Shown piece by piece: positions 9,132 to 23,423 of a DNA stretch of 64,000 nucleotides (the stretch's first letter is position 1; each line of letters begins with the position of its first letter). A program made the position numbers and the translations under genes. The notes beneath the pieces were generated by a model. It made no database searches, had not been told where the DNA came from, and worked only from the letters and a program-made list of their open reading frames with translations. The stretch comes from an uncultured virus (IMG/VR IMGVR_UViG_3300042477_000802) (taxonomy: Duplodnaviria; Heunggongvirae; Uroviricota; Caudoviricetes): IMG/VR virus record IMGVR_UViG_3300042477_000802, positions 1-64,000 of that record, one strand, 5' to 3'.

Positions 9132-9144
9132 ATATTTATCCTTA

Positions 9145-9164
9145 GTCTCTACATATAGAGCAAT
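9145..9164 (-). repeat. solitary Cas12j(CasPhi)-like repeat hairpin, copy 1
   Basis: minus strand ATTG-CTCTA-TATG-TAGAG-AC. Confidence 0.6.
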
Positions 9165-9187
9165 AGAAAGTTTTTTAATAAGTTAAA

Positions 9188-9730
9188 TCACTTATTTTTC
9201 AGTGATAAGTGTAATTGTTTACTGGCTAACGCATAATTAGTATAATTACTATTATCCGTCACTTCTTGAACCAAAGTTAAGAATGGAGGGAAACGAATTG
9301 GGTCAGATTTATTAGATAATTCTATCTCTAAAATTGCTAGACCTTTTAATGGTACTTTAAAAATATCTAACTCAAATATCTGATCTTTATATCTAAAAAG
9401 AAACCTAGTTTTATCGATAGATACTTTTTCTGGATGGGCTTGAGTTAAATATTTCTGATATTGGGATAATGAAATCTCTTTTTCTAACTCTTGATGCACG
9501 CCAGTTGCAACTGGCTTTTTTTGATTAAAATGATAAACTGTTTTCTTGTTGTCAGCTAATCCAGCAACCGTTTTTCTGACTCGACCAGATTGTTCTTCGC
9601 CTTTTGGCTTTAAGTAAGTTTGGCAAATTCTTTTAATATCTATTAATCCTTCTAACATAGATGCCAAAGCAGTCCAAGAGGAAGGAAATTTCACTATAAA
9701 TCTTCTCTCTATTTCTAATTTTTTTGACAT
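9188..9730 (-). CDS. CYTH / triphosphate tunnel metalloenzyme
   Basis: EIERRF, QTYL, RVRK, K.R, ELD, LEIEL motifs. Confidence 0.85.
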   Translation of the reverse strand: MSKKLEIERRFIVKFPSSWTALASMLEGLIDIKRICQTYLKPKGEEQSGRVRKTVAGLADNKKTVYHFNQKKPVATGVHQELEKEISLSQYQKYLTQAHPEKVSIDKTRFLFRYKDQIFELDIFKVPLKGLAILEIELSNKSDPIRFPPFLTLVQEVTDNSNYTNYALASKQLHLSLKNK

Positions 9731-9886
9731 ATTATATTGCTAATTAATTGATATCGCTAGCCAACTTTTCCAAGCCTAACCAGGTGCCACCATCGTAATA
9801 AATACGATGGCCCATCTTAAAAAATACGCGAGCCGTGGCACGAGCCACGGACCGTTAACCGGTGGCGGTAATTTTATAAGTTACTG

Positions 9887-10222
9887 TTAGCTCTTGCCTT
9901 TATGATTAGTTGGACTAAAATTAGTAATAATCTCAAACTTAATAGAAGGGGTAGTGGATAAATGATTGCCTAATTGGCAGGATTTACCTTTATGTAAACC
10001 AGAATTATTCTGCCAAAAGTTTAAATATACGGATTTATCTTGTTCAGATTTGAACTTAAGAATAGTAGCTTGAGCCTGTTTGCCGTCGGCAGATTGAACT
10101 CCAGCATATTTAATGGTTGATTCGTTAGCACATTCGGGGCACTCATTAATTTTGCCTCCTGCTAATTTTTTGGCAGGTGAATGTAACTCAAATTCATCGT
10201 GACAGTGAATACAGATTTGCAT
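9887..10222 (-). CDS. hypothetical Zn-finger protein
   Basis: CIHC...CPEC. Confidence 0.65.
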   Translation of the reverse strand: MQICIHCHDEFELHSPAKKLAGGKINECPECANESTIKYAGVQSADGKQAQATILKFKSEQDKSVYLNFWQNNSGLHKGKSCQLGNHLSTTPSIKFEIITNFSPTNHKGKS

Positions 10223-10243
10223 AAATTTTACCTGGAAATAAAA

Positions 10244-10582
10244 ATGAAATTATTTAAATTAAATAATATGACTCGTGGATGGATGGTGGGGCAATTTGAG
10301 CCCCATGTATATCAAAAGGATTATGAATTAGGATTCAAATATTATCAACAAGGGGATTATGAACAATCCCATTGCCATTTAAAAAGCGAAGAAGTGACTA
10401 TTATCTTATTAGGATCCGTCAAGATGAATGACAATATTTACCAGGAGGGCGATATTGTCGTTCAAGAACAAGGCGAATATACTGATTTTGAATGCCTATC
10501 TGAGAGAGCAATTACTGCGGTGTATCGACCTGATGGTTCTTTTCCTCAAGACAAATATGTTAGAGATAACTCCACCGCTTAA
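10244..10582 (+). CDS. cupin-fold protein
   Basis: GWMVGQFEP, H.H...E...G.V cupin motif. Confidence 0.7.
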   Translation: MKLFKLNNMTRGWMVGQFEPHVYQKDYELGFKYYQQGDYEQSHCHLKSEEVTIILLGSVKMNDNIYQEGDIVVQEQGEYTDFECLSERAITAVYRPDGSFPQDKYVRDNSTA

Positions 10583-10585
10583 AAT

Positions 10586-10613
10586 ATAATAACACCGATC
10601 TGGCCCGTGTCAA
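10586..10613 (-). promoter_or_regulatory. sigma70-like promoter
   Basis: TTGACA-N16-TATTAT; similar sites near 15435-15462, 25766-25793, 29731-29758 and 38719-38746. Confidence 0.55.
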
Positions 10614-10645
10614 GGTCGGCTATTTTATAAAATAAATTTTAAAAA

Positions 10646-10963
10646 TTACCATAAAGCTTTTAGCTTAACTACTCTCAAATATTCTTCTTCTGAATATTCT
10701 TTATTTTGAAGGTACCATCTTTTAGTACCATTAGCTAATTCTACCGCTGGACCATTTTCTCGATGACATCGATCATGAAGATACCAATATTTATCTCCAT
10801 TAGAACATTCTATTGCGGGACCATTCTCTCGATGGCGTTGACCATGAAGCAACCAAAATTTATCTCCATTATAGAATTCTATCGCTGGACCATCTTCTCG
10901 ATGAAGATTTCCATTACAATAATATTTTTTCTTGCCATTGTTATCTGTTTTAATTTCTTGCAT
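10646..10963 (-). CDS. HREDGPA-repeat family protein (cluster C)
   Basis: 3 repeats, conserved termini. Confidence 0.9.
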   Translation of the reverse strand: MQEIKTDNNGKKKYYCNGNLHREDGPAIEFYNGDKFWLLHGQRHRENGPAIECSNGDKYWYLHDRCHRENGPAVELANGTKRWYLQNKEYSEEEYLRVVKLKALW

Positions 10964-10966
10964 ATT

Positions 10967-11284
10967 TCACCACAAAGCTTTCAACTTAACTAATCGCCAA
11001 TATTCTTCTTCTGTATATTTTTTACCTTGAAGGAACCACGCTTTATAGCCATCAACATGATCTGCTGCTGGGCCATCTTCTCGATGACATTTGCCATGAA
11101 ACCACCATTCTTTACTACCATTACCATATTCTACTGCCGGGCCATCGTCTCGATGAAGACGACCATGACGATACCAATATTTATTTCCATTAGCATATTC
11201 TACGGCTGGACCAGCTTCTCGATGGAGTTGACCATTATAAGAATAAAATTTATTACCATATTTATCTGTTGTAATTTTTTCCAT
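10967..11284 (-). CDS. HREDGPA-repeat family protein (cluster C)
   Basis: 3 repeats, conserved tail. Confidence 0.9.
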   Translation of the reverse strand: MEKITTDKYGNKFYSYNGQLHREAGPAVEYANGNKYWYRHGRLHRDDGPAVEYGNGSKEWWFHGKCHREDGPAADHVDGYKAWFLQGKKYTEEEYWRLVKLKALW

Positions 11285-11325
11285 ACTTCACCATAAAAAT
11301 TTAAGCTTTACTGTTCGCCAATCTA

Positions 11326-12297
11326 TCAACCGGGCCAAGGATACGAAAGAATAACTTCTAATTTAGCCAGCATATCACTATTCAAATCTTTTGGCAATTC
11401 AGCATAATAAATGCCCGGCCAACAACCCGTCGTTTTCTCTAAAAGATTTGCCATATGACGTAAAGAATCAATAGTTCTTTTTCTCAATTCATCATGTCCT
11501 AAAGTTTGAACTAAATTCCTAAATTTATCTTCCTTATTTGCATGAGCTAATTTTTGTGATTTACACAATTGTAGCCAAAAAACTAATTCTTTATCATTAG
11601 AAAGCTCTGCTTTCTCTATCAGAAAATTTAATTGATTAAATCCAGACTCTTCTTTAGAGACATATGGAGTCTCCGAACTTTCCTTTACCTCTTGAAAGTG
11701 ATCAAGTAATTTTGATATGTCTTGTGACGAGCGTCCTCGTCTAGCATATTCTTCTCTAATTTTTAGATAAAAATTTTGATAAGTAGATATTTTAGATCGA
11801 TAAGGAGCGGTTAAATTAATCATCATATACATGGTACCAGTATCTACTAGAGATAGATCTAAGTCTGAGAAAAGAGAATTAATAGCTGAAAAATTCTTTT
11901 GCTCCAACAATTTGGAGATAAAAAAATATGCTTGGTCAGCGCCTCCTTCTTTTAAATTAAGACATTGATAATATAAATTATTTAAAAATTCTTTTGACAT
12001 GTTATTACCTAATTTGCCATATTCTTCTTCTGTATATTCTTTACCATGAAGAAAAAATTTACCTTCATGATCTATAGCCGGACCATTTGTTCGATGTAAT
12101 TTTCCATGAAAATACCACCATTCTTTATGGCCACTGGCTAACTCTATTGCTGGCCCATCCACTCGATGATATTTACCATGAAAAAACCACTCTTTATCTC
12201 CATTAACAAATTCTATCGCAGGGCCATCTTCTCGATGTAACTTATCATTCCAATAATAATATTTATTTCCACCTTGATCTATCTTAATTTCTTGCAT
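11326..12297 (-). CDS. chimeric protein: HREDGPA repeats fused to an unrelated helical domain
   Basis: Repeats up to YTEEEY, then ~225 aa of unrelated sequence; displaced tail WRTVKLKFLW* at 11288-11320. Confidence 0.8.
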   Translation of the reverse strand: MQEIKIDQGGNKYYYWNDKLHREDGPAIEFVNGDKEWFFHGKYHRVDGPAIELASGHKEWWYFHGKLHRTNGPAIDHEGKFFLHGKEYTEEEYGKLGNNMSKEFLNNLYYQCLNLKEGGADQAYFFISKLLEQKNFSAINSLFSDLDLSLVDTGTMYMMINLTAPYRSKISTYQNFYLKIREEYARRGRSSQDISKLLDHFQEVKESSETPYVSKEESGFNQLNFLIEKAELSNDKELVFWLQLCKSQKLAHANKEDKFRNLVQTLGHDELRKRTIDSLRHMANLLEKTTGCWPGIYYAELPKDLNSDMLAKLEVILSYPWPG

Positions 12298-12300
12298 ATT

Positions 12301-12684
12301 TCACCACAAAGCTTGTAATTTAACTACTCGCCAAAACTCTTCTTTAGAATATTGTTTACCTTGAAGATACCACCTTTTAGTGCCATTAGCTAATTCTACA
12401 GCTGAGCCATCTTCTCGATGATAAATACCATTAATAAGCCATATTTTAGTTCCACCAATATTATCTACGGCTGGACCGTCTTCTCGATGACGTTGGTCAT
12501 GAATCCACCACTCTGTATCTCCATTAATTCGCTCTATGGCTGGACCATCTGTTCGATGTAGTTGACCATGAAGATACCAAGATTTATCTCCATTAGCCCA
12601 TTCTACTGCAGGCCCGTCTTCTCGATGATAAACTCCATCGACCATCCAAAAAATATCTCCCTCATCATTTGTATACTTTACCAT
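12301..12684 (-). CDS. HREDGPA-repeat family protein (cluster C)
   Basis: 4 repeats; MVK start overlaps the previous stop. Confidence 0.88.
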   Translation of the reverse strand: MVKYTNDEGDIFWMVDGVYHREDGPAVEWANGDKSWYLHGQLHRTDGPAIERINGDTEWWIHDQRHREDGPAVDNIGGTKIWLINGIYHREDGSAVELANGTKRWYLQGKQYSKEEFWRVVKLQALW

Positions 12685-13064
12685 AAAGCTTTTAACTTAA
12701 CTACTCGCCAATAGTCTTCTTCTGAATATTTCTTTTCTTGCAACCAATATTCTTTAATTCCATCAGCATATTCTATGGCCGGGCCATCTTCTCGATGGAT
12801 TTCACCATGAAGAAACCAATATTTCGTTCCATTAGCGCGCTCTACTGCCGGTCCATCTTCCCGATGGAGTTTACCGTAAACCCACCATTCTTTAATAGAA
12901 TTATAAGTAAATTTTACTGCGGGACCATCTGTTCGATGCAGTTTGCCATGAAGATACCATTCTGTACTTCCGTCATTATTCTCTATAGCTGGACCATCTT
13001 CTCGATGTAATCGACCATTAAAGAAATAATGTTTACCATATTTATTTGTTTTTATTTCTTGCAT
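12678..13064 (-). CDS. HREDGPA-repeat family protein (cluster C)
   Basis: 4 repeats. Confidence 0.9.
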   Translation of the reverse strand: MQEIKTNKYGKHYFFNGRLHREDGPAIENNDGSTEWYLHGKLHRTDGPAVKFTYNSIKEWWVYGKLHREDGPAVERANGTKYWFLHGEIHREDGPAIEYADGIKEYWLQEKKYSEEDYWRVVKLKALW

Positions 13065-13067
13065 ACT

Positions 13068-13382
13068 TTACCATAAAGCTTTTAATTTAACTATTCTCCA
13101 ATAGTCTTTTTCGGTATATTCTTTACCTTGAAGAAACCAATATTTGTTTCCAACAACCCATTCTATGGCAGGACCATCTTCTCGATGTAATTGACCGTGA
13201 AGATACCATTCTTTATTTCCATTAACCCATTCTAATGCTGGACCATTTGTTCGATGTAGTTTACCATGTAAACGCCATTCTTTATATCCACTAGGTTCTT
13301 CTAACGCCGGCCCATCTTCTCGATGTAAGTTCCCATTATAACAATAATATTTACCCCATTTATTTTCTTTAATTTCTTGCAT
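13068..13382 (-). CDS. HREDGPA-repeat family protein (cluster C)
   Basis: 3 repeats. Confidence 0.9.
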   Translation of the reverse strand: MQEIKENKWGKYYCYNGNLHREDGPALEEPSGYKEWRLHGKLHRTNGPALEWVNGNKEWYLHGQLHREDGPAIEWVVGNKYWFLQGKEYTEKDYWRIVKLKALW

Positions 13383-13386
13383 AACT

Positions 13387-13737
13387 TTACCATAAAGTTT
13401 TCAACTTAACTAGTCTCCAATATTTTTTTTCTGAAGAAATTTTATTATCTTGTATAAACCATGATTTTCCGCCATCAGGCCATTCAATAGCGGGGCCATC
13501 TGATCGATGAAGTTGACCATAAAGATACCAACATTTAACTCCATTAGCGTATACTACTGCAGGTCCATCTTCTCGATGAAGATGGCCATGAAGACACCAA
13601 TGTTTTTCTCCACTGCTAAATTCTCTCGCCGGACCATCTTCTCGATGAACAAGATTATTCGCATAATATTCTTTAATTAGAATACCATTATAAAGGCTCC
13701 ACCTATATATTCTGATCCATTTATTGTTCATGGTCAA
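13387..13737 (-). CDS. HREDGPA-repeat family protein (cluster C)
   Basis: 3 repeats, KLKTLW tail. Confidence 0.88.
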   Translation of the reverse strand: MTMNNKWIRIYRWSLYNGILIKEYYANNLVHREDGPAREFSSGEKHWCLHGHLHREDGPAVVYANGVKCWYLYGQLHRSDGPAIEWPDGGKSWFIQDNKISSEKKYWRLVKLKTLW

Positions 13738-14773
13738 TTACATTTCTTTTATTACTATCTCTTTTCAAAAAAGCCACATAACTCTCTTTAAGAGAGAATT
13801 TCTCCGCAATTTGCCGATGAGTTAAATGCTCAAACAAAGAGTCAATCTCTTGAATCAAGGATTCGCTAACCATTTTAGGCTTCCTAAACCCGTTAAAATT
13901 TTTAGCCCTCTCTACGGGATACAGGGTTTTTAATTGTTGATAATAACCAATTTTTCTTAATCTAGAAACTAATCCCCAAGCCGACACATTCAAATGCTGA
14001 GCCGTCAACTTAAACGATCCGTGATAAGAACAAACTAAATTAAATAATTCCTGATCACCTGGCCAATCTTTAATAGGCAACTTATTAAAACTTAATAACT
14101 TGTCTGGCGACCAACGAGACTCATAATGGTTAATAATTTCAAAAGCTTGAGCCTTCTTTCTATCTAAACTAAAACAATCTGGTTGATAATAAATATGTTT
14201 TAATAATTTATATGCATTCAAATTTACGATAGATAGCCTATACATTTGAGTAGTAGAACTAGCTGCTTGACCATTAATAGTGGTAGTAATCCAAGGCGTT
14301 TCCTTGAGAGAAAGAGTAAAACCTAAAGTTGAATTAAGATAATCTTTGACTCCATTAATTAAATGGAAGGATGCCGAGTCAAATCTAATCATCGGAGATT
14401 TGTAAAATCCAATGCTTCCATCTCCATCTAATAACCCTCGAATCAAATCTGGATAATATTTTTCTGGTATAGTTGGAAACTTGACTATTTTAGTTTTATT
14501 CGGGACGCAACCATAAGAGACTAACCACTCAGCAATCGCTTGGCAATTAAAACTTAATTTAAAACAATTAGAATTTTTAATTTTGACTAGCGATTTAGTA
14601 GGGCATACTAACTTAGCAATAGCGTGCAATAAGGACACATCAATTGATTTGATGGAAACCTCATATCCATGCTTCAGATATACATTACCATCCGTAATGT
14701 ACAATCCCAAAAAATAAAAGGATAAAGCTGTTTCATCGGTAAAAATATTAGGATAATAGGTATATCTCATCAT
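13721..14773 (-). CDS. LAGLIDADG homing endonuclease
   Basis: YFLGLYITDGNV and LIRGLLDGDGSI motifs, PNKT, LDRK. Confidence 0.88.
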   Translation of the reverse strand: MMRYTYYPNIFTDETALSFYFLGLYITDGNVYLKHGYEVSIKSIDVSLLHAIAKLVCPTKSLVKIKNSNCFKLSFNCQAIAEWLVSYGCVPNKTKIVKFPTIPEKYYPDLIRGLLDGDGSIGFYKSPMIRFDSASFHLINGVKDYLNSTLGFTLSLKETPWITTTINGQAASSTTQMYRLSIVNLNAYKLLKHIYYQPDCFSLDRKKAQAFEIINHYESRWSPDKLLSFNKLPIKDWPGDQELFNLVCSYHGSFKLTAQHLNVSAWGLVSRLRKIGYYQQLKTLYPVERAKNFNGFRKPKMVSESLIQEIDSLFEHLTHRQIAEKFSLKESYVAFLKRDSNKRNVIDHEQ

Positions 14774-14784
14774 GAGATGCTATA

Positions 14785-15309
14785 TCACTGATATTTTTTC
14801 TTATAATATTCAGATGAGAGGAAAGGTTGTTGGGGAAGTTTGCGGATGAGTCGGAGCTGGAGCTGTCTGCTATAACGCCCCGCACACAGCCTGCTACAAA
14901 ATGGCCCAGCTCGCTTCTTCTTCGCCTTATCCCTCAACAACCTGGGACTTCTCTCAAATTCCTTATCACACAAGGCGCACTTCAATTTAACCAATTTCAC
15001 CCGACGAGTATCATCTGCCGAATGCTGATCCCGAGGAACCAATCTTAAATTCGATAAATCATTATTTAAATAATTGGAATCCCAATGATCTACGGTTTCT
15101 AAATCGGGGTCTAAAGTTCGACCTAAATGTTCTTCCATTAAGAATTTAGGATAGCTAACAGTTCTCCGAGAACCGTCTTCTTCTACGACAATGACAATTT
15201 GTCGACCATCTAAACGATGGTACGGGCCATACACTTTACTAGCTTGGGCTAATAAATAATAGCTATCAATCTCTTCTAGCAGGGCTCCATATTTAGATAA
15301 ATTGCTCAT
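14785..15309 (-). CDS. HNH endonuclease with Zn finger
   Basis: MEEHLGR.L...ETVDH.D.N..NN..SNL; CALC...FCSRLC; ATG start at 15309 preferred. Confidence 0.8.
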   Translation of the reverse strand: MSNLSKYGALLEEIDSYYLLAQASKVYGPYHRLDGRQIVIVVEEDGSRRTVSYPKFLMEEHLGRTLDPDLETVDHWDSNYLNNDLSNLRLVPRDQHSADDTRRVKLVKLKCALCDKEFERSPRLLRDKAKKKRAGPFCSRLCAGRYSRQLQLRLIRKLPQQPFLSSEYYKKKYQ

Positions 15310-15345
15310 GCCTATATATGGCAAACTATTAGTTAGTCGGCGCCC

Positions 15346-15365
15346 GTCTCCACGTATGGAGCAAT
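15346..15365 (-). repeat. solitary Cas12j(CasPhi)-like repeat hairpin, copy 2
   Basis: minus strand ATTG-CTCCA-TACG-TGGAG-AC. Confidence 0.65.
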
Positions 15366-15377
15366 TAGAACTTATGT

Positions 15378-15467
15378 CAGACAACGGGTCCTCTCAGAGA
15401 TCTAGTCAGACAGGATAATTTCCCAGAGTGGTATAATATAACCTCAAAGTAAAGATTGTCAAGGGCT
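15378..15467 (-). pseudogene. decayed duplicate of the promoter plus 5' half of tRNA-Tyr
   Basis: Near-copy of 25675-25729 and 25763-25799; stops within the anticodon loop; no 3' half found. Confidence 0.75.
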
Positions 15468-15481
15468 AAACTAATCCCCAA

Positions 15482-16183: not shown

Positions 16184-16212
16184 GTAAAATATGAGTAACT
16201 ATTAATAGATAG

Positions 16213-16286
16213 TGGTTCGGGTTTAGAGAATCGAACTCCAATTCGAGGATTCAAAGTCCTCTGTCCTACCGTTGAACGAAACCCGA
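16213..16286 (-). tRNA. tRNA-Gln(UUG)
   Basis: Cloverleaf; GAGGA-CT-TTG-AA-TCCTC; TTCGATT loop; CCA encoded. Confidence 0.92.
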
Positions 16287-16338
16287 ATAAAGTAACAATC
16301 TTAATATAACACGCGACTAATGTTAATATTTCAAAAAA

Positions 16339-16794: not shown

Positions 16795-16797
16795 ACT

Positions 16798-17112
16798 TTA
16801 CCACAAAGCTTTCAACTTAACTAATCGCCAATAAGATTCTTCTAAGTAGAATTTCCCATGCAGATAAAATGCTTTGGCGCCATTTTGTTGTTCAATCGCT
16901 GGCCCATCTTCTCGATGGAGCTGCCCCTGATAATACCATAATTTATGTGTTTTTTTAACAATTGCCGGCCCGTCCTCTCTATGAGGTAGACCATACATCC
17001 AATATTCTTGTTCTCCATTGTAATATTCTACCGCTGGACCATCTTCTCGGTGTGGCTGATTATTCCAATAATAATATTGGGATCCATTTTTCTCTGTTAT
17101 AATTTTTTGCAT
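16798..17112 (-). CDS. HREDGPA-repeat family protein (cluster D)
   Basis: 3 repeats. Confidence 0.9.
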   Translation of the reverse strand: MQKIITEKNGSQYYYWNNQPHREDGPAVEYYNGEQEYWMYGLPHREDGPAIVKKTHKLWYYQGQLHREDGPAIEQQNGAKAFYLHGKFYLEESYWRLVKLKALW

Positions 17113-17116
17113 TATG

Positions 17117-17278
17117 TTACCAGAAAGCTTTTAATTTAACTAAACGCCAATATATTTTTTCAGAATAATTTTTACCTTGAAGGTACCAATATTTACGATC
17201 TTTATAGCAGAAAGCCAACCACTTTAGTGGTTGGACCATTAGCAAATTCTATGGCAGATCCATTCTCTCGATGGAGTT
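17117..17278 (-). pseudogene. truncated HREDGPA gene interrupted by an IS-end remnant
   Basis: LHRENGSAIEFANG / KYWYLQGKNYSEKIYWRLVKLKAFW* around a ~40-nt insert. Confidence 0.75.
17197..17235 (+). mobile_element. IS200/IS605 left-end remnant
   Basis: GATCTTTA...CCAACCAC-TTTA-GTGGTTGG hairpin; same GATCTTTA start as the left end of the 2886-4154 element. Confidence 0.6.
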
Positions 17279-17280
17279 AT

Positions 17281-17694
17281 TCAATTGACAGTAGCAAAAG
17301 CATATTTTATTTTGCCAGTAAAGGTAACATATACGCATCCTTTTAAGGATGCTCCGTCATCTACCGCAGTATTCATAAAAGTAAAGACCAATAAATTATC
17401 TATTTTATCACTGGCTTTTATTTCTCGAAGATCCCAATACTCTGACTTATGAGCTTCCGTTTGTAAGAAATTAGCTTTATCAACATCTGTTTCTAACAAT
17501 TTAGCATAATTGTTATGTGGAGCAATATTAATAATTTGCTCGGCTAATTTAGCCGCATTAGCTGCTACATTGGCAGATAATTTATTAGTTAAATCCTCAA
17601 TGGTAATTCCTAATACTTCTTGTATAATAGAAGAGATATCTTCCTTTTTTGTTTCCGCCCCTAATCCTAAATCTGAAAAATTTTCAATAGCCAT
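17281..17694 (-). CDS. hypothetical protein
   Basis: ORF track. Confidence 0.7.
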   Translation of the reverse strand: MAIENFSDLGLGAETKKEDISSIIQEVLGITIEDLTNKLSANVAANAAKLAEQIINIAPHNNYAKLLETDVDKANFLQTEAHKSEYWDLREIKASDKIDNLLVFTFMNTAVDDGASLKGCVYVTFTGKIKYAFATVN

Positions 17695-17717
17695 ACTTAC
17701 CTGTTAATTATCCTTAA

Positions 17718-18308
17718 TTATTTAACTAAATCTTTATTGAGAGACCACATCGGGAATAACCATTGCTTGCTAAATGTGCATGCCTCGTGCGGCTGCATAT
17801 TATGCAAAAAACCATCTCCTAATTTTTCTCGACCCAAATTAATTCGATAAATATATTGCTTCGCATAAGCCGGAATAGTCCAGCCCATAAGAAAATATTC
17901 TGGCATTTTACCAGTCACTAATACTAATGGAACTTTATTTTGGTCCTTTTTCATAATCATTAATCCATCTTCTGGATCATTGATATGACGAACATTGACT
18001 TGACCTACATCGGGATAAGAATGAAATTCATTAGGTTGAGTTACCCGAGCAGTACCACCGCCCCATTCTTGAACGGCAAATTCTGCGCCTTTGGATTCCG
18101 TCGTACAGAACAAACTTTGTTCTCTAGAATTTTGAAAAGCATGATCATATAATTCATTATCTCGAGAGTCATCTTCTTGAATTTTAGCTAAACGGAAAGA
18201 TTCTTGTTGCTTCTTGTCTGGAATAATAACTTTAATCCAATCACTTTCTTGGGTGAGAATTAATTCTTTGATTCCTAAACGAGAAAATAATTCTTTATTT
18301 ATATTCAT
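17718..18308 (-). CDS. hypothetical protein, possible PD-(D/E)XK-like fold
   Basis: GAEFAV...PDVG..NVR pattern; weak. Confidence 0.55.
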   Translation of the reverse strand: MNINKELFSRLGIKELILTQESDWIKVIIPDKKQQESFRLAKIQEDDSRDNELYDHAFQNSREQSLFCTTESKGAEFAVQEWGGGTARVTQPNEFHSYPDVGQVNVRHINDPEDGLMIMKKDQNKVPLVLVTGKMPEYFLMGWTIPAYAKQYIYRINLGREKLGDGFLHNMQPHEACTFSKQWLFPMWSLNKDLVK

Positions 18309-18309
18309 A

Positions 18310-18765
18310 TTAATACCACAAAGCTTTTAATTTAACTACTCGCCAATATTCTTTCTCTGAATATTTTTTACCTTGAAGGTACCACGCTTTATATCCATCA
18401 GTATGATCTGCTGCAGGTCCATCTTCTCGATGCCGTTTTCCCTGAAGCCACCAATCTTTACTTCCATCGGCATATTCTATAGCTGGTCCGTTTTCTCGAT
18501 GACATCGACCGTGGATCCACCACCCTTTATATCCATTAACCTTTTCTACTGCTGAACCATCTTCTCGATGAAGAAGGCTATGACGATACCAAAATTTACT
18601 TCCATTAGAAAATTCTACTGCTGGACCATCTTCTCGATGACGCTGACCATGAAGCCACCATTCTTTATCTCCCTCATAATCTTCTACTGCCGGACCATCT
18701 TCTCGGTGCAACTGATTATTCCAGTAATAATATATACCAAATTGATCTGTTTCTATTTCTTGCAT
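18310..18765 (-). CDS. HREDGPA-repeat family protein (cluster E)
   Basis: 5 repeats; tail KLKALWY. Confidence 0.9.
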   Translation of the reverse strand: MQEIETDQFGIYYYWNNQLHREDGPAVEDYEGDKEWWLHGQRHREDGPAVEFSNGSKFWYRHSLLHREDGSAVEKVNGYKGWWIHGRCHRENGPAIEYADGSKDWWLQGKRHREDGPAADHTDGYKAWYLQGKKYSEKEYWRVVKLKALWY

Positions 18766-18768
18766 ACT

Positions 18769-19020
18769 TTACCACAAAGTTTTTAATTTAAGTACTCGAA
18801 AATATTCTTCTTCTGAATATTCTTCGCCTTGAAGATACCAGAATTTCCGCCCATCATTATATTCCTTGGCAGGACCATCTTCTCGATGTCTTTTGCCATG
18901 AATCCACCACTCTTTATCTCCATTAACATACTCTATGGCGGGACTATTTTCTCGATGGTATTTATGACCCAAATAATAATATGTAGCATGTTCAGTGATA
19001 ATTTTTAGATGTTTTACCAT
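18769..19020 (-). CDS. HREDGPA-repeat family protein (cluster E)
   Basis: 2 repeats; MVK start. Confidence 0.88.
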   Translation of the reverse strand: MVKHLKIITEHATYYYLGHKYHRENSPAIEYVNGDKEWWIHGKRHREDGPAKEYNDGRKFWYLQGEEYSEEEYFRVLKLKTLW

Positions 19021-19256
19021 AAAGATTTTAATTTAAGTGCTCTCCAATATTCTTCTTCGGAATATCGTTTGCCTTGAAGGTACCAATATTTAGTTCCATC
19101 ATTATTTTCTATGGCGGCACCATCTTCTCGATGTAACTGACCATGAAGATACCAATATTTATCTCCATTAGTATTTTCTAGGGCTGGTCCATCTTCTCGA
19201 TGAAGTTTGCCATTACAAAAATAATGTTTATTATTAAACATATCTGTATATATCAT
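19014..19256 (-). CDS. HREDGPA-repeat family protein (cluster E)
   Basis: 2 repeats. Confidence 0.88.
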   Translation of the reverse strand: MIYTDMFNNKHYFCNGKLHREDGPALENTNGDKYWYLHGQLHREDGAAIENNDGTKYWYLQGKRYSEEEYWRALKLKSLW

Positions 19257-19257
19257 A

Positions 19258-19851
19258 TTACCATAAAGCTTGCAATTTAACTAATCGCCAATATTTTTCT
19301 GGCGAATATTTTTTACCTTCTAGGTAAAAAGTTTTACTTCCATTAGAATGTTCTATAGCCGGGCCATCTACTCGATGGCGCAAATCATAACGCCACCATT
19401 CTTTAGTTCCATTAGCATGGATAATGGCTGGTCCATCTTCTCGATGTCGTTGATCATAACGATACCAATATTTATCTCCATTAGCCAATTCTATGGCAGG
19501 ACCATTTTCTCGATGTAATTCATCATGATGATACCAGTGTTTATCTCCATTGGCCTTTTCTACTGCTGGACCATCTTCTCGATGGAGTTGATCATGAAGA
19601 TACCATTCTTTACTGCCATCAGACCATTCTATGGCTGGACCATCTTCTCGATGTCGTCGATCATTAACCCACCACTCTTTAGTTCCATCAGCCTCTTCTA
19701 CTGCAGGGCCATCTTCCCGATGGTATTTATCATAAACCCACCAAGATTTATCTCCATTAGGATATTCTACTGCTGGACCATCTTCTCGATGAAGCTGGTT
19801 ATTCCAGCGATATCTTTTAACGCCATGTTCATCTATCTCAATTTTTTGCAT
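19258..19851 (-). CDS. HREDGPA-repeat family protein (cluster E)
   Basis: 7 repeats. Confidence 0.9.
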   Translation of the reverse strand: MQKIEIDEHGVKRYRWNNQLHREDGPAVEYPNGDKSWWVYDKYHREDGPAVEEADGTKEWWVNDRRHREDGPAIEWSDGSKEWYLHDQLHREDGPAVEKANGDKHWYHHDELHRENGPAIELANGDKYWYRYDQRHREDGPAIIHANGTKEWWRYDLRHRVDGPAIEHSNGSKTFYLEGKKYSPEKYWRLVKLQALW

Positions 19852-19855
19852 ATTG

Positions 19856-20242
19856 CTACCATAAAGCTTTTAGTTTAACTACTCGCCAATATTCTTCTTC
19901 TGAATAGCTTTTACCTTGAAGGTGCCAATATTTATGGCCATGAGTATTTTCTATAGCTGGGCCATCTTCTCGATGTAAATTTCCATAATAATACCACTGC
20001 TTAAATCCATTAGCATAATCTATGGCCGGACCACCTTCTCGATGAAGGTGATCATAAATAAACCATTCTTTGTCTCCATTAACCTTCTCTACAGCCGGAC
20101 CATTTTCCCGATGTCTTTGACCATTAAAAAACCAATGCTTATCTCCATCATACCATTCAATAGCTGGACCATCTTCTCGATGGAATTTGCCATTCCAATA
20201 GTATTTTTTAGTTCCACGTTCATCTATTATAATTTCTTGCAT
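19856..20242 (-). CDS. HREDGPA-repeat family protein (cluster E)
   Basis: 4 repeats. Confidence 0.9.
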   Translation of the reverse strand: MQEIIIDERGTKKYYWNGKFHREDGPAIEWYDGDKHWFFNGQRHRENGPAVEKVNGDKEWFIYDHLHREGGPAIDYANGFKQWYYYGNLHREDGPAIENTHGHKYWHLQGKSYSEEEYWRVVKLKALW

Positions 20243-20245
20243 ACT

Positions 20246-20629
20246 TTACCATAAAGTTTTTAACTTGACTACTCGCCAATATTCTTCTTCAGAGTATTCT
20301 TTATCTTGAAGAAACCATCGTTTCTCTCCATCAGCATATTCTACTGCTGGACCATCTTCTCGATGGAGTTGACCATAAATCCACCAAGATTTATCTCCAT
20401 TATAAACCTCTACGGCTGGCCCACCTTCTCGATGGTACTGGCCATAAAAATACCAACATTTATCTCCATTAACATATTCTACTGCGGGACCATCTTCTCG
20501 GTGGCGTTGACCGCGAATCCACCAAGCTTTATCGCCATTTATATATTCTATAGCCGGACCATCTTCCCGATGAAGATCTCCATTACAATAATAAAATTTA
20601 GTACCAATTATATCTATAATTTCTTGCAT
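20246..20629 (-). CDS. HREDGPA-repeat family protein (cluster E)
   Basis: 4 repeats. Confidence 0.9.
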   Translation of the reverse strand: MQEIIDIIGTKFYYCNGDLHREDGPAIEYINGDKAWWIRGQRHREDGPAVEYVNGDKCWYFYGQYHREGGPAVEVYNGDKSWWIYGQLHREDGPAVEYADGEKRWFLQDKEYSEEEYWRVVKLKTLW

Positions 20630-20632
20630 ACT

Positions 20633-20840
20633 TTACCATAAAGCTTTTAGCTTAACTATTCGCCAATACTCTTCTTCAGAATAGTGATCGCCTGCTAGGT
20701 AAAAACTTTTTCTACCATCAGCATGTTCTATGGCCGGCCCATCTATTCGATGCCGTTGATCATTACGATACCAAGCCTTATATCCATTGGCTCCTTCTAA
20801 TGCTGGACCATCTTCTCGATGAAGAGCGCCATAAATATCT
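20633..20840 (-). pseudogene. 5'-truncated HREDGPA gene
   Basis: 2 repeats plus tail WRIVKLKALW; no in-frame start. Confidence 0.75.
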
Positions 20841-20969
20841 TATGTGCCATAATCTTGCTTTCTGAAAAGTGTGGTCGGCCATGATGGTAACGCTCCATCG
20901 TCTATAGACATTTTATTTAAAATGTATAATTTTATGTAAATTTATACTAATATAATTTCATATAAATGA

Positions 20970-21551
20970 ATGAAACTATCTCAATGGGCAAAAAAGAATG
21001 GATTAACTTATCAGACAGCATTTAACCTTTTTAAAAAAGGTCAGTTGCCAGGAAAAGTTATCCAGCTGTCATCTGGAACTATTTTAGTAGAAGAAGATTC
21101 AGTAGTTAAAAATAATCAATCATTAAAAACCTATGTTTATTGCAGAGTATCTTCTTCCAATAAGAAAGATGATTTAAATAGACAAATAGAAAGATGTTTA
21201 CAATTTTGTACTGCCAACGGCTGGGAAGTAGAGAAAGTTTATAAAGAAATTGCTTCTGGAATGAATGATAATAGAAAGCAATTAAATCTTTTATTAAATT
21301 CCGAGCCTAAAAGAATTGTAGTAGAACATAAAGATAGATTAACAAGATTTGGATTTAATTACCTAGATAGACTGTTAAATATTCTGGGATATCATCTAGT
21401 TGTTATCAACAGAGATAAAGAAGATGAAAACGATCTAATTAAAGATTTAATTGCAATAATTACTTCCTTTTGTTGTCGACTATATGGATTACGAAGAGGC
21501 GCTAAAAAAGTAAAAGCAATTAAAAAAACATTAGAGGAATCTAGTGATTAG
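20970..21551 (+). CDS. tnpA: IS607 serine recombinase TnpA
   Basis: MKLSQWAK HTH; YCRVSS; DDLNRQ; EIASG; DRLTRFG; RLYGLR. Confidence 0.93.
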   Translation: MKLSQWAKKNGLTYQTAFNLFKKGQLPGKVIQLSSGTILVEEDSVVKNNQSLKTYVYCRVSSSNKKDDLNRQIERCLQFCTANGWEVEKVYKEIASGMNDNRKQLNLLLNSEPKRIVVEHKDRLTRFGFNYLDRLLNILGYHLVVINRDKEDENDLIKDLIAIITSFCCRLYGLRRGAKKVKAIKKTLEESSD

Positions 21552-22803
21552 ATCTACGAAACACTATCTGCAAGATTGTAATTCTGGAAAAAAAGAAATA
21601 ATTTCTTCTTTCTTGAAAGAATATCGATTTGCAGTTCAGTCTTATATTGATTACATTTGGTCAAACAAATTATTAGATCATAATGGAAGAATCATTTGGA
21701 GCATTAATGACGATTTATTATTTCTTCCAAAATTTTTAGATTATAAAATAATAAGTCATGATAAATTATCTGCCAGGGCTCTTTCTGCGGCCTTATCCCA
21801 AGCAATTGGAATCGTTAAAGGCAGGGTATCGATTAGAAATAAAATATTATATATTATTAAAAAAAGAAAAGAAGAGAATAAGTCTTCCAATTATTGGGAA
21901 TCAAAACTTGAAAAATTAAAACTTACAAAACCAATTATTGGATCAAATTTTCAAGCAGAGCTGTCTCAAAAACAAATAGAAATACGAGAAAGTTCAAATC
22001 ACTTTAACTTGTTTATTAAGTTGTATGGAACTGGTTTTGATATTGTTAAAATTCCTATAAAATATCACAAACAAGACCAGAAATGGATTTCTTCATCTGG
22101 AAAAAGATTGGCAGGAGTTTTAATCAAAGAAAATTGTATTCAATTAAGATATGAAGTTCCAGTTCCCACTAAAAAGGTCGGAAAAACTGTTGGAGGAGAT
22201 ACTGGATTAAAAACAGCTCTTACTTTATCTAATGGGCATAAAACTCCAGAGAAAGATAATCATGGTCATTCTTTAGATTCTATTTGCAATAAAATTGCCA
22301 AAAAGAAAAAAGGATCAAAAGCTTTTAATAAAGCTCAGGATCATAGAATGAATTTTATTAATTGGTCCATTAACCAATTAAATTGGAAAGATATTGGTCA
22401 AGTCAATCTTGAACATGTGTATGATATTAAACGAGGAAAAAGAACTAGCAGAAAAATGTCTGCTTGGAGCAATCTTTTAATTCATAATAAAATAACAAAA
22501 GTTTTAGAAGAGGTTGGGGTCCAACTGAATCTACAATCCAGTCCATATCGGTCTCAGAGATGTTCTGGATGCGGAATAGTACGAAAAGCAAATCGCAAAG
22601 GTAAGGAATATAAATGTAAAGAGTGCAAGTTGCATATAGATGCAGATTTAAATGCGGCACTTAATCATGAAATAGATCTTCCTGAAATACGATTTTATTT
22701 TCGGCAGTATTTATCGAAACTATCTAGTTTCTATTGGAAATCAGAAGGTTTATTTGATAATACTGGTCAGGAGCTTAGAGTCCCTGGCACAAACAAAAAC
22801 TAA
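21544..22803 (+). CDS. tnpB: IS607-type TnpB
   Basis: GGDTG, NLE, SQRCSGCG...CKEC, DADLNAA. Confidence 0.88.
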   Translation: MIRSTKHYLQDCNSGKKEIISSFLKEYRFAVQSYIDYIWSNKLLDHNGRIIWSINDDLLFLPKFLDYKIISHDKLSARALSAALSQAIGIVKGRVSIRNKILYIIKKRKEENKSSNYWESKLEKLKLTKPIIGSNFQAELSQKQIEIRESSNHFNLFIKLYGTGFDIVKIPIKYHKQDQKWISSSGKRLAGVLIKENCIQLRYEVPVPTKKVGKTVGGDTGLKTALTLSNGHKTPEKDNHGHSLDSICNKIAKKKKGSKAFNKAQDHRMNFINWSINQLNWKDIGQVNLEHVYDIKRGKRTSRKMSAWSNLLIHNKITKVLEEVGVQLNLQSSPYRSQRCSGCGIVRKANRKGKEYKCKECKLHIDADLNAALNHEIDLPEIRFYFRQYLSKLSSFYWKSEGLFDNTGQELRVPGTNKN

Positions 22804-22895
22804 ATATATTTTTATATATTTATGTTAACTCTACTGCTTATCAGACAGTGACACTTAACTTTTGTACGAATGGCCGATTAAAAATATTTAATATC

Positions 22896-22969
22896 TGGAG
22901 CTAACGAACGGACTCGAACCGCCAACCGCCTGTTTACAAAACAGGGCTCTACCATTGAGCTACGTTAGC
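22896..22969 (-). tRNA. tRNA-Thr(UGU)
   Basis: CCTGT-TT-TGT-AA-ACAGG; canonical D and T loops; CCA. Confidence 0.92.
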
Positions 22970-23005
22970 TTATGATAAGCTATATTTTCAAATATAGTTA
23001 ATAAC

Positions 23006-23070
23006 TATAATGACAAAAATTGTAATTGATATAATTTAATCCGATGTAATCAATTACGGCATTCATTATA
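23006..23070 (-). ncRNA. Y-RNA-like (putative Ro60-binding) hairpin 1
   Basis: Two-stem hairpin with internal loop AUGCC/AAUUUUUG; 3 covarying copies; TROVE gene nearby. Confidence 0.55.
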
Positions 23071-23083
23071 TTTAATTTTAAAA

Positions 23084-23152
23084 TGGCGCCAACTAGCCGT
23101 TACGATCGGCTTTAGTCTTCTTTTAAGAGATTAAAAATCTATCTCTATTGGC
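23084..23152 (-). ncRNA. tRNA-like element lacking a normal anticodon arm
   Basis: GCCAAU/GUUGGC acceptor-like stem plus GCCA end; AGCCG-AUCGUAA-CGGCU T-arm; GAGAU/AUCUC D-like arm. Confidence 0.5.
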
Positions 23153-23165
23153 AAGACAGCTGCCT

Positions 23166-23197
23166 GTCTAGATATTTAGGGATTCTAGCTTCCATTA
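23166..23197 (-). repeat. 32-nt dispersed repeat (pseudoknot-like), copy 1
   Basis: TAATGGAAGCTAGAATCCCTAAATATCTAGAC. Confidence 0.85.
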
Positions 23198-23198
23198 A

Positions 23199-23270
23199 TA
23201 TATAATGACAAAAATTGTAATTGATGTTTTTATCCAATTAAATGTAATCAATTACGGCATTCACTATATA
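23199..23270 (-). ncRNA. Y-RNA-like hairpin 2
   Basis: Near-copy of 23006-23070 with a different apical loop. Confidence 0.55.
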
Positions 23271-23274
23271 CTTG

Positions 23275-23347
23275 CTCTACTTCCAGGATTTGAACCTGGG
23301 ACCCACGGCTTAACAGGCCGCTGCTACTACCGCTGAGCTAAAGTAGA
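23275..23347 (-). tRNA. tRNA-Asn(GUU)
   Basis: GCGGC-CT-GTT-AA-GCCGT; TTCAAAT T loop; CCA not encoded. Confidence 0.92.
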
Positions 23348-23377
23348 ATAATCTATTCAATAGATATCGTGTAGTCT

Positions 23378-23397
23378 GTCTCCACTAATGGAGCAAT
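23378..23397 (-). repeat. solitary Cas12j(CasPhi)-like repeat hairpin, copy 3
   Basis: minus strand ATTG-CTCCA-TTAG-TGGAG-AC. Confidence 0.65.
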
Positions 23398-23423
23398 AAA
23401 GGCTTTCATCGCACTTAGTAGTC

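Follow-up and report, generated by a model that had tools for sequence, protein, structure and literature searches.

Solitary type V-J-like CRISPR repeat hairpins in gene and tRNA leaders of a huge phage, with a possible decoy role

Three hairpin units in minus-strand leaders

The window, a stretch of 64,000 nt, belongs to a huge phage from a lake, and its record is a fragment of that genome (121,933 bp, ~28% of roughly 430 kb). The following features of the window are considered here.

2887-4035, minus strand: TnpB-like gene, 382 aa; no link to the hairpin units found
9132-9144, minus strand: copy 1 tail, 13 nt with Shine-Dalgarno-like TAAGGA, ATG next at 9131 (direct read)
9145-9164, minus strand: copy 1, handle only, ATTG-CTCTA-TATG-TAGAG-AC (direct read, pattern scan)
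13721-14773: LAGLIDADG-like gene, next after the HNH gene
14785-15309, minus strand: HNH homing-endonuclease-like gene 3' of copy 2 (HNH_3, phrog_14913)
15310-15345, minus strand: copy 2 tail, 36 nt, G+C-rich, spacer-length, up to the HNH start codon (direct read)
15346-15379 (handle 15346-15365), minus strand: copy 2, near-full-length Cas12j-type repeat (direct read, pattern scan, repeat identity)
15433-15462, minus strand: sigma-70-like promoter match, TTGACA-16/18-TATATT/TATTAT, 11/12 (consensus match only)
20970-22803, plus strand: IS607-like pair, serine resolvase (20970-21551) and TnpB-like gene (21544-22803)
23274-23347, minus strand: tRNA-Asn(gtt), first gene after copy 3
23348-23377, minus strand: copy 3 tail, 30 nt, up to the tRNA-Asn 5' end
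23378-23397, minus strand: copy 3, handle only, ATTG-CTCCA-TTAG-TGGAG-AC, within the tRNA cluster (direct read, pattern scan)
23477-23562, minus strand: tRNA-Leu(caa), last gene before copy 3
29745-29781, minus strand: intergenic element, 37 nt, 92% identical to positions 660-696 of metagenome contig L163

The three units share the form ATTG-CTCYA-TNNG-TRGAG-AC and all lie between genes on the minus strand; direct reading bore out the coordinates and sequences given in the first-pass annotation. Read on that strand, copy 1 (9164-9145) is ATTGCTCTATATGTAGAGAC, copy 2 (15365-15346) is ATTGCTCCATACGTGGAGAC and copy 3 (23397-23378) is ATTGCTCCATTAGTGGAGAC, and the 14 nt upstream of the 20-nt handle of copy 2 are TGACATAAGTTCTA. 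In copies 1 and 3 the entire 5' half of the repeat is gone, but all 14 fixed handle positions are kept and the variable stem pairs still pair, the changes being compensatory or G-U.

A scan of the window with up to 2 mismatches recovered exactly these three units against 0.00 in 100 dinucleotide shuffles. The genome-wide motif scan that the first-pass annotation had proposed, run over the whole 121,933-bp record as ATTG-N5-N4-revcomp-AC, returned the three and no others, above shuffle averages of 0.0 (strict TNNG form) and 0.1 (any loop). Relaxed scans gave 5 matches with G-U pairs allowed (0.6 in shuffles) and 9 with four of five stem pairs (4.5 in shuffles); the extra matches are at noise level, and none contains CTC...GAG. 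Two further copies sit just past the left end of the record, in sister records, for a lineage total of five; the loop of one of them, TACC, departs from TNNG. Folded with its flanks, the 5-bp hairpin is weak, and the predicted minimum-energy structure is a different one; an Rfam search of the units gave no family match.

Copy 1 starts 23 nt past the stop of a CYTH-like ORF (9188-9730) and is followed by 13 nt (TAAGGATAAATAT) and the ATG of ORF 8649-9131. The HNH gene begins (ATG at 15309) 36 nt downstream of copy 2, and the promoter-like site precedes the handle of copy 2 by ~68 nt and is one of 3 such matches in the 400-nt region of this copy against 1.0 in shuffles. Copy 3 stands between tRNA-Leu(caa) and tRNA-Asn, 30 nt ahead of the latter. 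The position of a spacer is occupied, as had been read at first, by a ribosome-binding site plus start codon (copy 1), the HNH leader (copy 2) and the tRNA-Asn leader (copy 3). No terminator-like site was found 3' of the units. The IS607-like pair adjoins the tRNA cluster and is oriented against the gene flow.

Cas12j repeats, arrays and the effector gene

In three huge-phage records (G001, G002 and G004) and contig L160, CRISPR arrays adjoin Cas12j genes, including a 796-aa ORF in G002 (E 6e-210 to CasPhi-2) and one of 718 aa in G004 (E 2e-159), and their repeats end at the 3' side in ATTG-CTCNN-TNNG-NNGAG-AC. Extended by the 14 nt upstream of its handle, copy 2 agrees at 33/34 positions with the array repeat of the metagenome loci L163/L168/L210. 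Together, the arrays beside CasPhi-2 homologues and the near-identity of copy 2 substantiate the likeness to CasPhi repeats that the first-pass annotation had noted. Stem covariation was scored in 22 units, drawn from 6 arrays and from 7 lineages with solitary units. The two stem pairs not constrained by the search were paired in 100% of cells and showed both-sided changes in 28 cells, a result reached by 0 of 500 shuffles.

Every unit retains the part of the Cas12j repeat conserved in the examined arrays, namely the 5-bp stem, the 4-nt loop, UUG at the 5' side and AC at the 3' side. In the Cas12j3 structure, according to the available text of its report, a strictly conserved Arg touches C-1 and U-18 of the crRNA handle and G-17 pairs with A-2 (PMC8298400); the invariant TG...AC flanks of the units are these contacted or paired nucleotides. 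Sequence identifies all three 20-mers as solitary CRISPR repeat units of type V-J (Cas12j/CasPhi). With the V-J arrays of huge phages they share the 20-nt 3' part (UUG, a 5-bp stem starting in CUC, a 4-nt loop, GAG) and AC directly ahead of the guide position. Unlike those arrays, they are single and dispersed with no tandem array, lack the repeat 5' half in copies 1 and 3, precede the phage's own leader sequence instead of an acquired spacer, and stand in a record with no cas12j in 122 kb.

Neither cas12j nor an array was found in the 121,933-bp record (G000) or in its two sister records (G006, G007). The first-pass statement that no array or cas gene is present is correct for cas12j and arrays but overlooked the two TnpB-like genes. 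Three relatives (G011, G012 and G013; 100, 100 and 97% complete by CheckV estimate) carry neither cas12j nor solitary units, five smaller related records (G027-G031) carry no solitary units, and overall the element is absent from ten related records. Absence of cas12j and of a related array from the phage and its relatives had been named as evidence against a Cas12j connection; it holds for the record, the two sisters and the three relatives, but an array with the same repeat lies on a contig of the clade. This contig, L163, is placed in the same phage clade by its DNA ligase, which is 66-70% identical to those of G011-G014, a distance equal to that of the Ro60-like protein of this phage. The array period in L163/L168 is 74 nt, which implies spacers of ~37 nt, and the element at 29745-29781 is a second non-coding stretch common to the record and L163. 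Because of the repeat, the ligase distance and the shared 37-nt element, an array, perhaps together with a Cas12j, probably exists in the lineage of this phage or in a sister of it. cas12j was not found in the 3 kb downstream of the L163 array, nor upstream in L168/L210, whose left flank differs from that of L163.

The search for targets of the presumed spacers after the hairpins yielded nothing above chance. The first 18 nt of the copy 2 tail have no IMG/VR match beyond the sister records, and the tail 18-mers gave 0, 2 and 1 independent matches in other viruses, each ending at 18-19 nt. None of 40 array spacer segments matches the record, and so there is no sign in them of a Cas12j system targeting this phage.

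Solitary units in other huge phages

Six other huge-phage lineages carry similar solitary units in several copies, again intergenic and on the sense strand. In the two lineages mapped, the units occupy short intergenic gaps ahead of genes, and in two lineages units lie within tRNA clusters. The exact handle of the G002 array (ATTGCTCGGTACGCCGAGAC) is found as solitary units in five records where cas12j was not found. G004 has a cas12j gene and an array, and its own handle is also present in five solitary units, three of them inside a 31-tRNA cluster, including one 23 nt before tRNA-Ser that parallels copy 3. Of the seven lineages with at least two solitary units, one showed cas12j; ~3.2 would be expected from CheckV completeness if all had it (P(<=1) ~0.06). 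Where another record has just one unit, the match may be due to chance, as pattern scans return singles at chance level, which for IMG/VR is a rough estimate; among 92 de-duplicated IMG/VR singles the inner pairs are Watson-Crick in 25, against 5.75 expected.

A possible decoy and its alternatives

Solitary repeat units have been shown experimentally to act as Racr decoys for types I-F, I-E, I-C and V-A (Cas12a) (PMC10651486, Camara-Wilpert et al. 2023). As described in the available portion of that report, Racrs resemble the window units in being isolated mimics of a CRISPR repeat, carried by a virus genome away from cas genes, in the promoter-like site, found here ahead of one unit, and in the proposed sequestering of an effector. 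The window units differ in being of type V-J ('V-J' and 'Cas12j' do not occur in the text searched, from its main article and nine supplementary files), in occurring as several copies per genome within operons and a tRNA cluster, in mimicking a phage-borne system, and in being handle-only in two of three copies, which searches requiring whole-repeat coverage probably miss. In Cracr/CreR-type viral crRNA-like RNAs, as far as the accessible text of that preprint goes, Cas12a processes the element to handle plus guide, and the tail is complementary over ~10 nt, flanked by a PAM, to the promoter of a cas or toxin gene and is followed by a terminator (bioRxiv 10.1101/2024.10.29.618823). The single repeat-like element with a spacer-like tail is common to both, whereas for the window tails no complementarity of this kind was found in the record or available Cas12j loci, and no terminator-like site follows. 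Virus-borne mini-arrays, thought in the available part of their report to use a trans-supplied effector against competitors (PMC11656645), likewise consist of minimal CRISPR parts, and G004 and L105 hold two-repeat mini-arrays of the same repeat family as the window units; the latter have one repeat and no second, and tails with no above-chance virus matches.

Units of this kind would be transcribed within minus-strand operons, one after the promoter-like site, one in the tRNA cluster and one between ORFs, and their RNA would fold as a crRNA handle. A Cas12j could bind the folded handle and probably trim its 5' side, so that the 13-36 nt of phage sequence after the handle would simply become the 'guide' of a crRNA-like RNA; for copy 3, RNase P cutting at the tRNA-Asn 5' end may set the 3' end of the handle-plus-tail RNA. 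Self-targeting by such a guide would not be possible, since the DNA ahead of the matching site in the phage is repeat sequence (..GAC) instead of a T-rich PAM. We infer from these steps that the units would sequester the Cas12j brought in by another huge phage during co-infection, as a Racr-type RNA anti-CRISPR. That they act by binding a Cas12j is likely, while the decoy reading as a whole is tentative, at a probability of about 0.4. The promoter-like site ahead of copy 2 and the tRNA-cluster position of copy 3 suit expression, and the lack of cas12j in the record, its sisters and G011-G013, with its low frequency across lineages, favours a decoy. Against it stand the weak hairpin, the lack of any spacer match to the record, the units of G004 that exist alongside its own effector, and the ~28% coverage of the genome, since a cas12j gene may sit in the unsampled part; if the lineage owns a Cas12j, there would be little point in a decoy against it.

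That last point leads to the possibility, somewhat unlikely on balance, that the units work with a Cas12j of this phage itself, coded in the unsampled 72% of its genome. Bound to handles scattered over the phage transcripts, the effector might cut polycistronic RNA there and cover the ribosome-binding site or the leader of the tRNA, in regulation or processing, or the handles might be used as additional single-guide units. The incomplete record, the array on L163, copy 2 with its resemblance to leader promoter, repeat and 36-nt spacer-length segment, and the gene content of G004 all agree with this. So does the spacing of start codons, 13-36 nt after window copies 1 and 2 and sister-record copy 4 and 15-75 nt after four intergenic units of G008, through which the ribosome-binding site would in several cases fall in the guide channel. 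The gene is nonetheless absent from the three near-complete relatives, seen in one of seven multi-unit lineages and missing from the searched flanks of L163 and L168/L210, and the tails have no targets found. An improbable reading is that the units have no present function and are what decay has left of an earlier array or of inserted repeats. Copy 2 does look like a first array unit truncated by two homing-endonuclease genes (HNH and LAGLIDADG), the lineage's five copies can be ranked by decay relative to the array repeat, from 33/34 and 31/34 through a partial 5' half to the handle alone, and the TACC loop fits; yet copies 1 and 3 keep their fixed positions and pairing despite the lost 5' half, and both the recurrence in six other lineages and the inner pairs of the IMG/VR singles argue against decay.

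Sites before start codons and in a tRNA precursor would also suit a 5' stabiliser or nuclease site, and the lack of Cas12j in the record and three near-complete relatives agrees with a generic, Cas12j-independent element for RNA stability, processing or protein binding. This is nevertheless quite improbable: such a hairpin has no need of the invariant ATTG/AC flanks, which match Cas12j-contacted nucleotides and arrays beside Cas12j. Copy 2 shares 34 nt with a real repeat, ten related records (three of them 97-100% complete) lack the element, and it matches no Rfam family. Cas12j descends from TnpB, and the unit-bearing lineage has 2-3 TnpB-like genes while G011-G015 have 0; G008/G009 and G010 carry such genes as well. 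The units could on this basis be omega RNA ends or targets of the TnpB-like genes, but we consider that very improbable, as no unit lies at either tnpB 3' end or on the tnpB strand there, where other hairpins are found, and G016, G020 and G021 bear units with no TnpB-like match.

If the decoy reading is true, the system mimicked by these units is itself phage-borne, and the conflict in which they take part would be one of phage against phage.

Three solitary handle units and their likeness to Cas12j repeats

The first-pass annotation had described three minus-strand 20-mers, each reading ATTG, a 5-bp stem closed by a TNNG loop, and AC (hereafter the handle). Their sequence and position were as claimed, and a window scan allowing two mismatches returned these three only, against 0.00 expected from 100 shuffles. 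A motif scan of the full 121,933-bp record found the same three and no others (shuffles ~0), while relaxing the stem to G-U pairs or one unpaired position only added noise of unrelated sequence. All three lie in intergenic gaps on the minus strand, which carries 185 of the 226 ORFs called in the record, and are spaced 6.2 and 8.0 kb apart:

9145-9164, minus strand: copy 1; a CYTH-like ORF ends 23 nt before it and the ATG of the ORF at 8649-9131 lies 13 nt after it, with TAAGGA within those 13 nt
15346-15365, minus strand: copy 2; the ATG of an HNH gene lies 36 nt downstream
23378-23397, minus strand: copy 3; between tRNA-Leu and tRNA-Asn, with tRNA-Asn 30 nt downstream

The units are lone repeats on a mobile element, without an adjoining repeat or cas gene. 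The annotation's statement that there is no array holds, as the 121,933-bp record contains no tandem array of ~72-75 nt period; its statement that there is no cas gene stands for cas12j, which is not found in the record, and has to be qualified by the presence of two TnpB-like genes, the C-terminal zinc-ribbon parts of which were all that a CasPhi-2-like query matched. No terminator-like site adjoins any of the three units and a promoter consensus match precedes copy 2 alone (one of three). At the gathering score Rfam matches were confined to tRNAs, and with E values up to 10 no credible family emerged for copy 2; RNA folding in context did not pick out the 5-bp hairpin. Contigs of four DNA runs compared with 8500-24500 showed no difference at the units among the matches listed. 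The record, whose lineage occurs in lake-water samples, has 38% G+C and is rated 28% complete in IMG/VR, which implies a genome of ~430 kb, and 8 kb of it gave no megablast match among GenBank phages.

The resemblance to CasPhi repeats, put forward in the annotation, is borne out by arrays that adjoin Cas12j genes and whose repeats end in the same 20-mer frame. An IMG/VR pattern scan with ATTGCTCNNTNNGNNGAGAC, in which the two inner stem pairs were left free, yielded at least 120 stretches, and among the 120 listed five are arrays or two-repeat mini-arrays with a period of ~70-75 nt (L013, L056, L022, L105, L081). Arrays of the complete huge-phage records G001 (362 kb) and G002 (529 kb) touch ORFs of ~797 aa and a seven-repeat array of a third record, G004, touches a 718-aa ORF; the G002 and G004 proteins match the solved CasPhi-2 at E 6e-210 and 2e-159. 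A metagenome array (L160) begins 130 nt past the C-terminus of a Cas12j ORF. The Cas12j repeats examined have a variable 5' half and a 3' end made of ATTG, a CTCNN stem, a 4-nt loop, NNGAG and then AC. Copies 1-3 share this 5-bp stem with its 4-nt loop, and the hairpin stops 2 nt short of the guide position, in the same frame as in the arrays beside Cas12j. Differences lie in length and arrangement: the full type V-J repeat is ~36 nt, which copy 2 nearly reaches (33/34), whereas copies 1 and 3 are similar over ~20 nt only, and type V-J arrays are tandem with a period of ~72-75 nt, whereas the window units are single and dispersed.

According to PMC8298400, a strictly conserved arginine in the Cas12j3 structure contacts C-1 and U-18, and G-17 pairs with A-2. 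Numbered backwards from the guide, these positions fall on the TG of ATTG and on the AC that closes the unit, so that the invariant flanks of the units are the same nucleotides. In sequence comparison copies 1-3 all read UUG, stem-loop, AC, and the window units thus keep the nucleotides predicted to make the Cas12j-specific contacts. In a set of 22 units from seven solitary-unit lineages and six arrays, which retained every pattern match in those records, pairing at the two free stem positions is complete and uses eleven different dinucleotides; 0 of 500 shuffles reached this.

Units, arrays and gene content in the lineage and its relatives

All three window copies recur with unchanged spacing in the sister records G006 (128.5 kb) and G007 (71.7 kb), which have two extra units beyond the record's left end. 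These two flank a 93-aa ORF, 338 nt apart, and bring the lineage to five copies:

L231:5880-5899 and L231:6222-6255 (G006; same in G007): sister-record units, one with a G-U stem pair

The second of these matches the array repeat nearly in full (31/34), has a TACC loop and is followed after 7 nt by an ORF that starts with GTG. Lineage copies therefore range from near-full repeat to handle only, with the fixed handle positions and the pairing kept in 5/5. A search with the 629-aa protein to extend the lineage returned the sister record only.

As in the record, no cas12j was found in the sister records G006/G007, a result that rests on ~28% of the genome. A search with the Ro60-like protein found relatives at 67-74% identity, three of which are 433-448-kb records rated 97-100% complete. 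Among G011-G015, which include these three, 0/5 gave any match to a Cas12j query and 0/5 a TnpB-like match, and units of the handle type were found in 0/10 related records. Since the relatives have neither, this lineage acquired both the units and the TnpB-like genes. Relatives carry the genes flanking copy 1 in the same order, but 2-5 kb apart, and their tRNA order differs from that of the record, so that no direct empty allele can be read from them.

Three ORFs were considered as cas12j remnants and rejected. The 233-aa ORF beside copy 2 has no Cas12j similarity, belongs to a PHROG family unmatched by Cas12j proteins and has no homologue in the relatives. Neither the 513-aa ORF (best E 0.96) nor the 629-aa ORF (no match at all) had a significant sequence match in PDB; for the former there was no informative Atlas match and one marginal partial match (E 5e-4, in G011) in five other genomes.

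Copy 2 extends beyond the handle. Together with its upstream 14 nt it matches 33/34 positions of the repeat (TGACATAAGTTCTA plus handle) of arrays on three low-G+C contigs, L163, L168 and L210 (35-39% G+C), which came from a metagenome scan with a narrower pattern (54 stretches). A sigma-70 consensus match (11/12) lies ~68 nt upstream and a G+C-rich stretch of 36 nt, a spacer length, separates copy 2 from the HNH start; taken together, its architecture looks like a promoter, a repeat and one spacer. The NAD-dependent DNA ligase of L163 shares 66-70% identity with the same relatives, compared with 50% with G004 and 40% with G001, and a second non-coding stretch of 37 nt is common to L163 and the record:

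29745-29781, minus strand: 37-nt intergenic element, 92% identical to L163:660-696, AATTTTTAAAAA..GCCTTGACAGCCAATTT, with a TTGACA hexamer; once in the record

The ligase distances and the common element indicate that an array with the copy 2 repeat exists in the same phage clade, very possibly in this very lineage. L163 starts inside its array and has no cas12j in the 3 kb downstream of it, and the small ORFs adjoining its ligase are not conserved in G011. In L168 and L210 the same repeat stands behind a cytochrome-like gene without a homologue in the relatives or in G006.

The record further encodes a Ro60/TROVE protein, a class II aminoacyl-tRNA synthetase, an RNA ligase, an intein-bearing ThyX and tRNAs. 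The first three suggest an RNA repair and quality-control set; they and the TnpB-like genes are placed as follows:

27589-29142: Ro60/TROVE-vWA protein, near the tRNA cluster
40620-42164: class II aminoacyl-tRNA synthetase, near the tRNA cluster
51753-52835: RNA ligase, near the tRNA cluster
20970-22803, plus strand: IS607-like serine resolvase and TnpB pair, inserted against gene flow beside the tRNA cluster
2887-4035, minus strand: second TnpB-like gene

Genes of homing-endonuclease type are numerous (window 13721-15309, 23576-24049 and 24580-25482; L003:9326-9874; L005:10989-12734) and comprise LAGLIDADG, several HNH, an endonuclease-like DUF559/MTES_1575-domain ORF and a GIY-YIG ORF at 1-666; the intein that splits ThyX has an HNH domain. 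A 69-nt coding repeat (23-aa unit with HREDGPA) occurs in more than 200 copies (window 726-2813, 4991-5722 and many more; L003, L004, L005); it makes up small paralogous ORFs of 104/105/128 aa, which number in the dozens, as well as a few longer ones. Pfam gives only weak DUF6745 matches. An ORF-poor stretch (L004:10929-15985, record 94929-99985) holds fourteen copies of a ~42-nt unit ending GACAAAACTTAGTCGCTGGGA, in clusters spaced 56-112 nt and with a GCGAC/GTCGC inverted repeat inside; Rfam gave no match there save one tRNA.

Solitary units in other phages and searches with the tails

Solitary units in multiple copies were found in seven lineages: this one, G004, G008/G009, G010, G016, G020 and G021. 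The mapped units of G008 and G006 lie on the sense strand; 5/6 occupy short gaps between genes, with the next start 15-75 nt downstream, and the sixth, from G008, is inside a called 626-aa ORF. In G004, a 323-kb record that bears cas12j, three units sit inside a cluster of 31 tRNAs plus a tmRNA:

L230:4053-4072, 5440-5459 and 7627-7646: G004 tRNA-cluster units

Only G004, one of the seven multi-unit lineages, was seen to have cas12j. Based on CheckV completeness, ~3.2 sightings would be expected if all lineages carried it (P of one or fewer ~0.06). Further unit-bearing records had cas12j in 0/11, and G006-G010 had TnpB-like frames only. The exact handle of the G002 array recurs as solitary units in five records where cas12j was not found. 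Among de-duplicated single matches, Watson-Crick inner pairs occur in 25/92 against 5.75 expected (p 3e-10), which indicates that many, not all, single units are real. We rate the 16 single pattern matches in GTDB genomes, with no array, as chance-level.

The tail, i.e. the phage sequence directly 3' of a unit, takes the position of a guide. Within the record the tails have no second site of 10 nt or more, save one 11-nt coincidence for copy 1, and against the Cas12j loci and array contigs examined they gave nothing longer than 9 nt. Conversely, 40 spacer-like segments from nine arrays gave no match to this phage longer than 17 nt, the 17-nt one being repeat sequence. A search of phages with the tails, proposed in the first-pass annotation and run with the first 18 nt against IMG/VR, did return matches; in our rough judgement they are chance-level because they end at the query length. 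The copy 2 tail found sister records only. The copy 3 tail found ten other contigs, which represent two independent events: nine (L259-L270, 14-40 kb) share one homologous conserved gene of small phages with an exact 18-nt match and a TGG flank, and the remaining contig has a 19-nt match with a GAA flank. The tail of copy 4, in the sister records, had one 18-nt match. These units thereby differ from crRNA-like regulatory RNAs of the Cracr/CreR type, whose tail partly matches a cas or toxin promoter beside a PAM and is followed by a terminator; the window tails have no such match in the record or in the Cas12j loci and array contigs examined, and no terminator follows the window units.

In G004, the tails of all three cluster units read like tRNA 3' ends that start just past the T-loop TTC, with GAYT, a 5-nt T-stem, a 7-nt acceptor and a discriminator, and a terminal CCA in one. 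The phage's own tRNAs match these tails over 9-11 nt only, with TTC in front, and one tail (23 nt) ends at the 5' end of tRNA-Ser. Their layout makes the cluster tails candidate guides that would target tRNA genes in a host or a rival.

Possible roles: decoys, own guides or relics

Effectors of the Cas12 type turn a single repeat and the sequence after it into a guide. Cas12j1 and Cas12j2 process pre-crRNA with their RuvC site, as stated in PMC8298400. Sequestration of effectors by solitary repeats has been demonstrated for several CRISPR types, V-A among them (PMC10651486), and a preprint reports repeat-plus-tail RNAs that redirect Cas12a (bioRxiv 10.1101/2024.10.29.618823). The window units are presumably transcribed within their operons, and Cas12j binding would then yield RNAs whose tails are the phage's own leaders. 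Such tails would not harm their own phage because the repeat occupies the PAM position. For copy 3 and one G004 unit, the 3' end would be set by tRNA 5' processing. Cognate arrays for such units exist, in L160 beside a Cas12j C-terminus and in L163, L168 and L210.

We tentatively favour the units being RNA decoys against the Cas12j of a rival phage, at a probability of about 0.4. This choice was made because cas12j is absent wherever it was looked for in the clade, because it was seen in only one of the seven multi-unit lineages, and because array handles of other phages recur in records where it was not found. That the units serve the phage's own Cas12j is a close alternative, only somewhat less probable, which the L163 array and the presence of cas12j beside solitary units in G004 speak for. 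Neutral relics would account for copy 2, though not for handle-only copies that have been preserved, and we consider them improbable. A hairpin that works independently of Cas12j has little support and is quite unlikely, and a link to the TnpB-like genes, similarly little supported, is the least credible of all: an omega RNA of TnpB would be expected on the tnpB strand, at the 3' end of that gene and immediately ahead of the guide, a placement the units do not have, and the link was rejected on this test.

At long odds, the units might function as single-guide genes and form a natural device for homing or exclusion. An own or borrowed Cas12j would load RNAs of handle plus own leader, the corresponding gene start of a related co-infecting phage without the insertion would be cleaved, and repair from the unit-bearing genome would copy the unit in, with the own locus immune because the inserted repeat replaces the PAM. 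The PAM of Cas12j is T-rich, 5'-TBN. With the 20-mer removed, the bases before the tails of copies 1 and 3 are TCT and TTT, which fit, and those of the remaining three lineage copies do not; in A+T-rich spacers, a fit in 2/5 does not exceed chance.

Neither solitary repeat units nor RNA anti-CRISPRs are new in themselves. Literature searches found no report of solitary repeat units for type V-J and none pairing "solitary repeat" with "Cas12j"; the text and supplementary files of PMC10651486, of which the long files were possibly incomplete, contain neither "V-J" nor "Cas12j". Judging from the sequences compared, the new elements would be the handle-only form, the several copies per genome, the placement in short pre-gene gaps and tRNA clusters, and a phage-borne system as partner. 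The selected module appears to be the 20-nt handle alone, which bears on minimal Cas12j guide design, and censuses that demand full-length repeat matches probably miss handle-only units.

RNA anti-CRISPRs made of solitary repeat units are known to act on host systems, and Cas12j is carried by huge phages themselves. Handle mimics in other huge phages, if they act as decoys, would therefore give the first indication of RNA-based counter-defence in a conflict between phages. If the units instead serve the phage's own Cas12j, a CRISPR nuclease would be wired into the handling of phage mRNA and tRNA precursors through dispersed single repeats, an arrangement of which engineered tRNA-guide arrays are the artificial counterpart.
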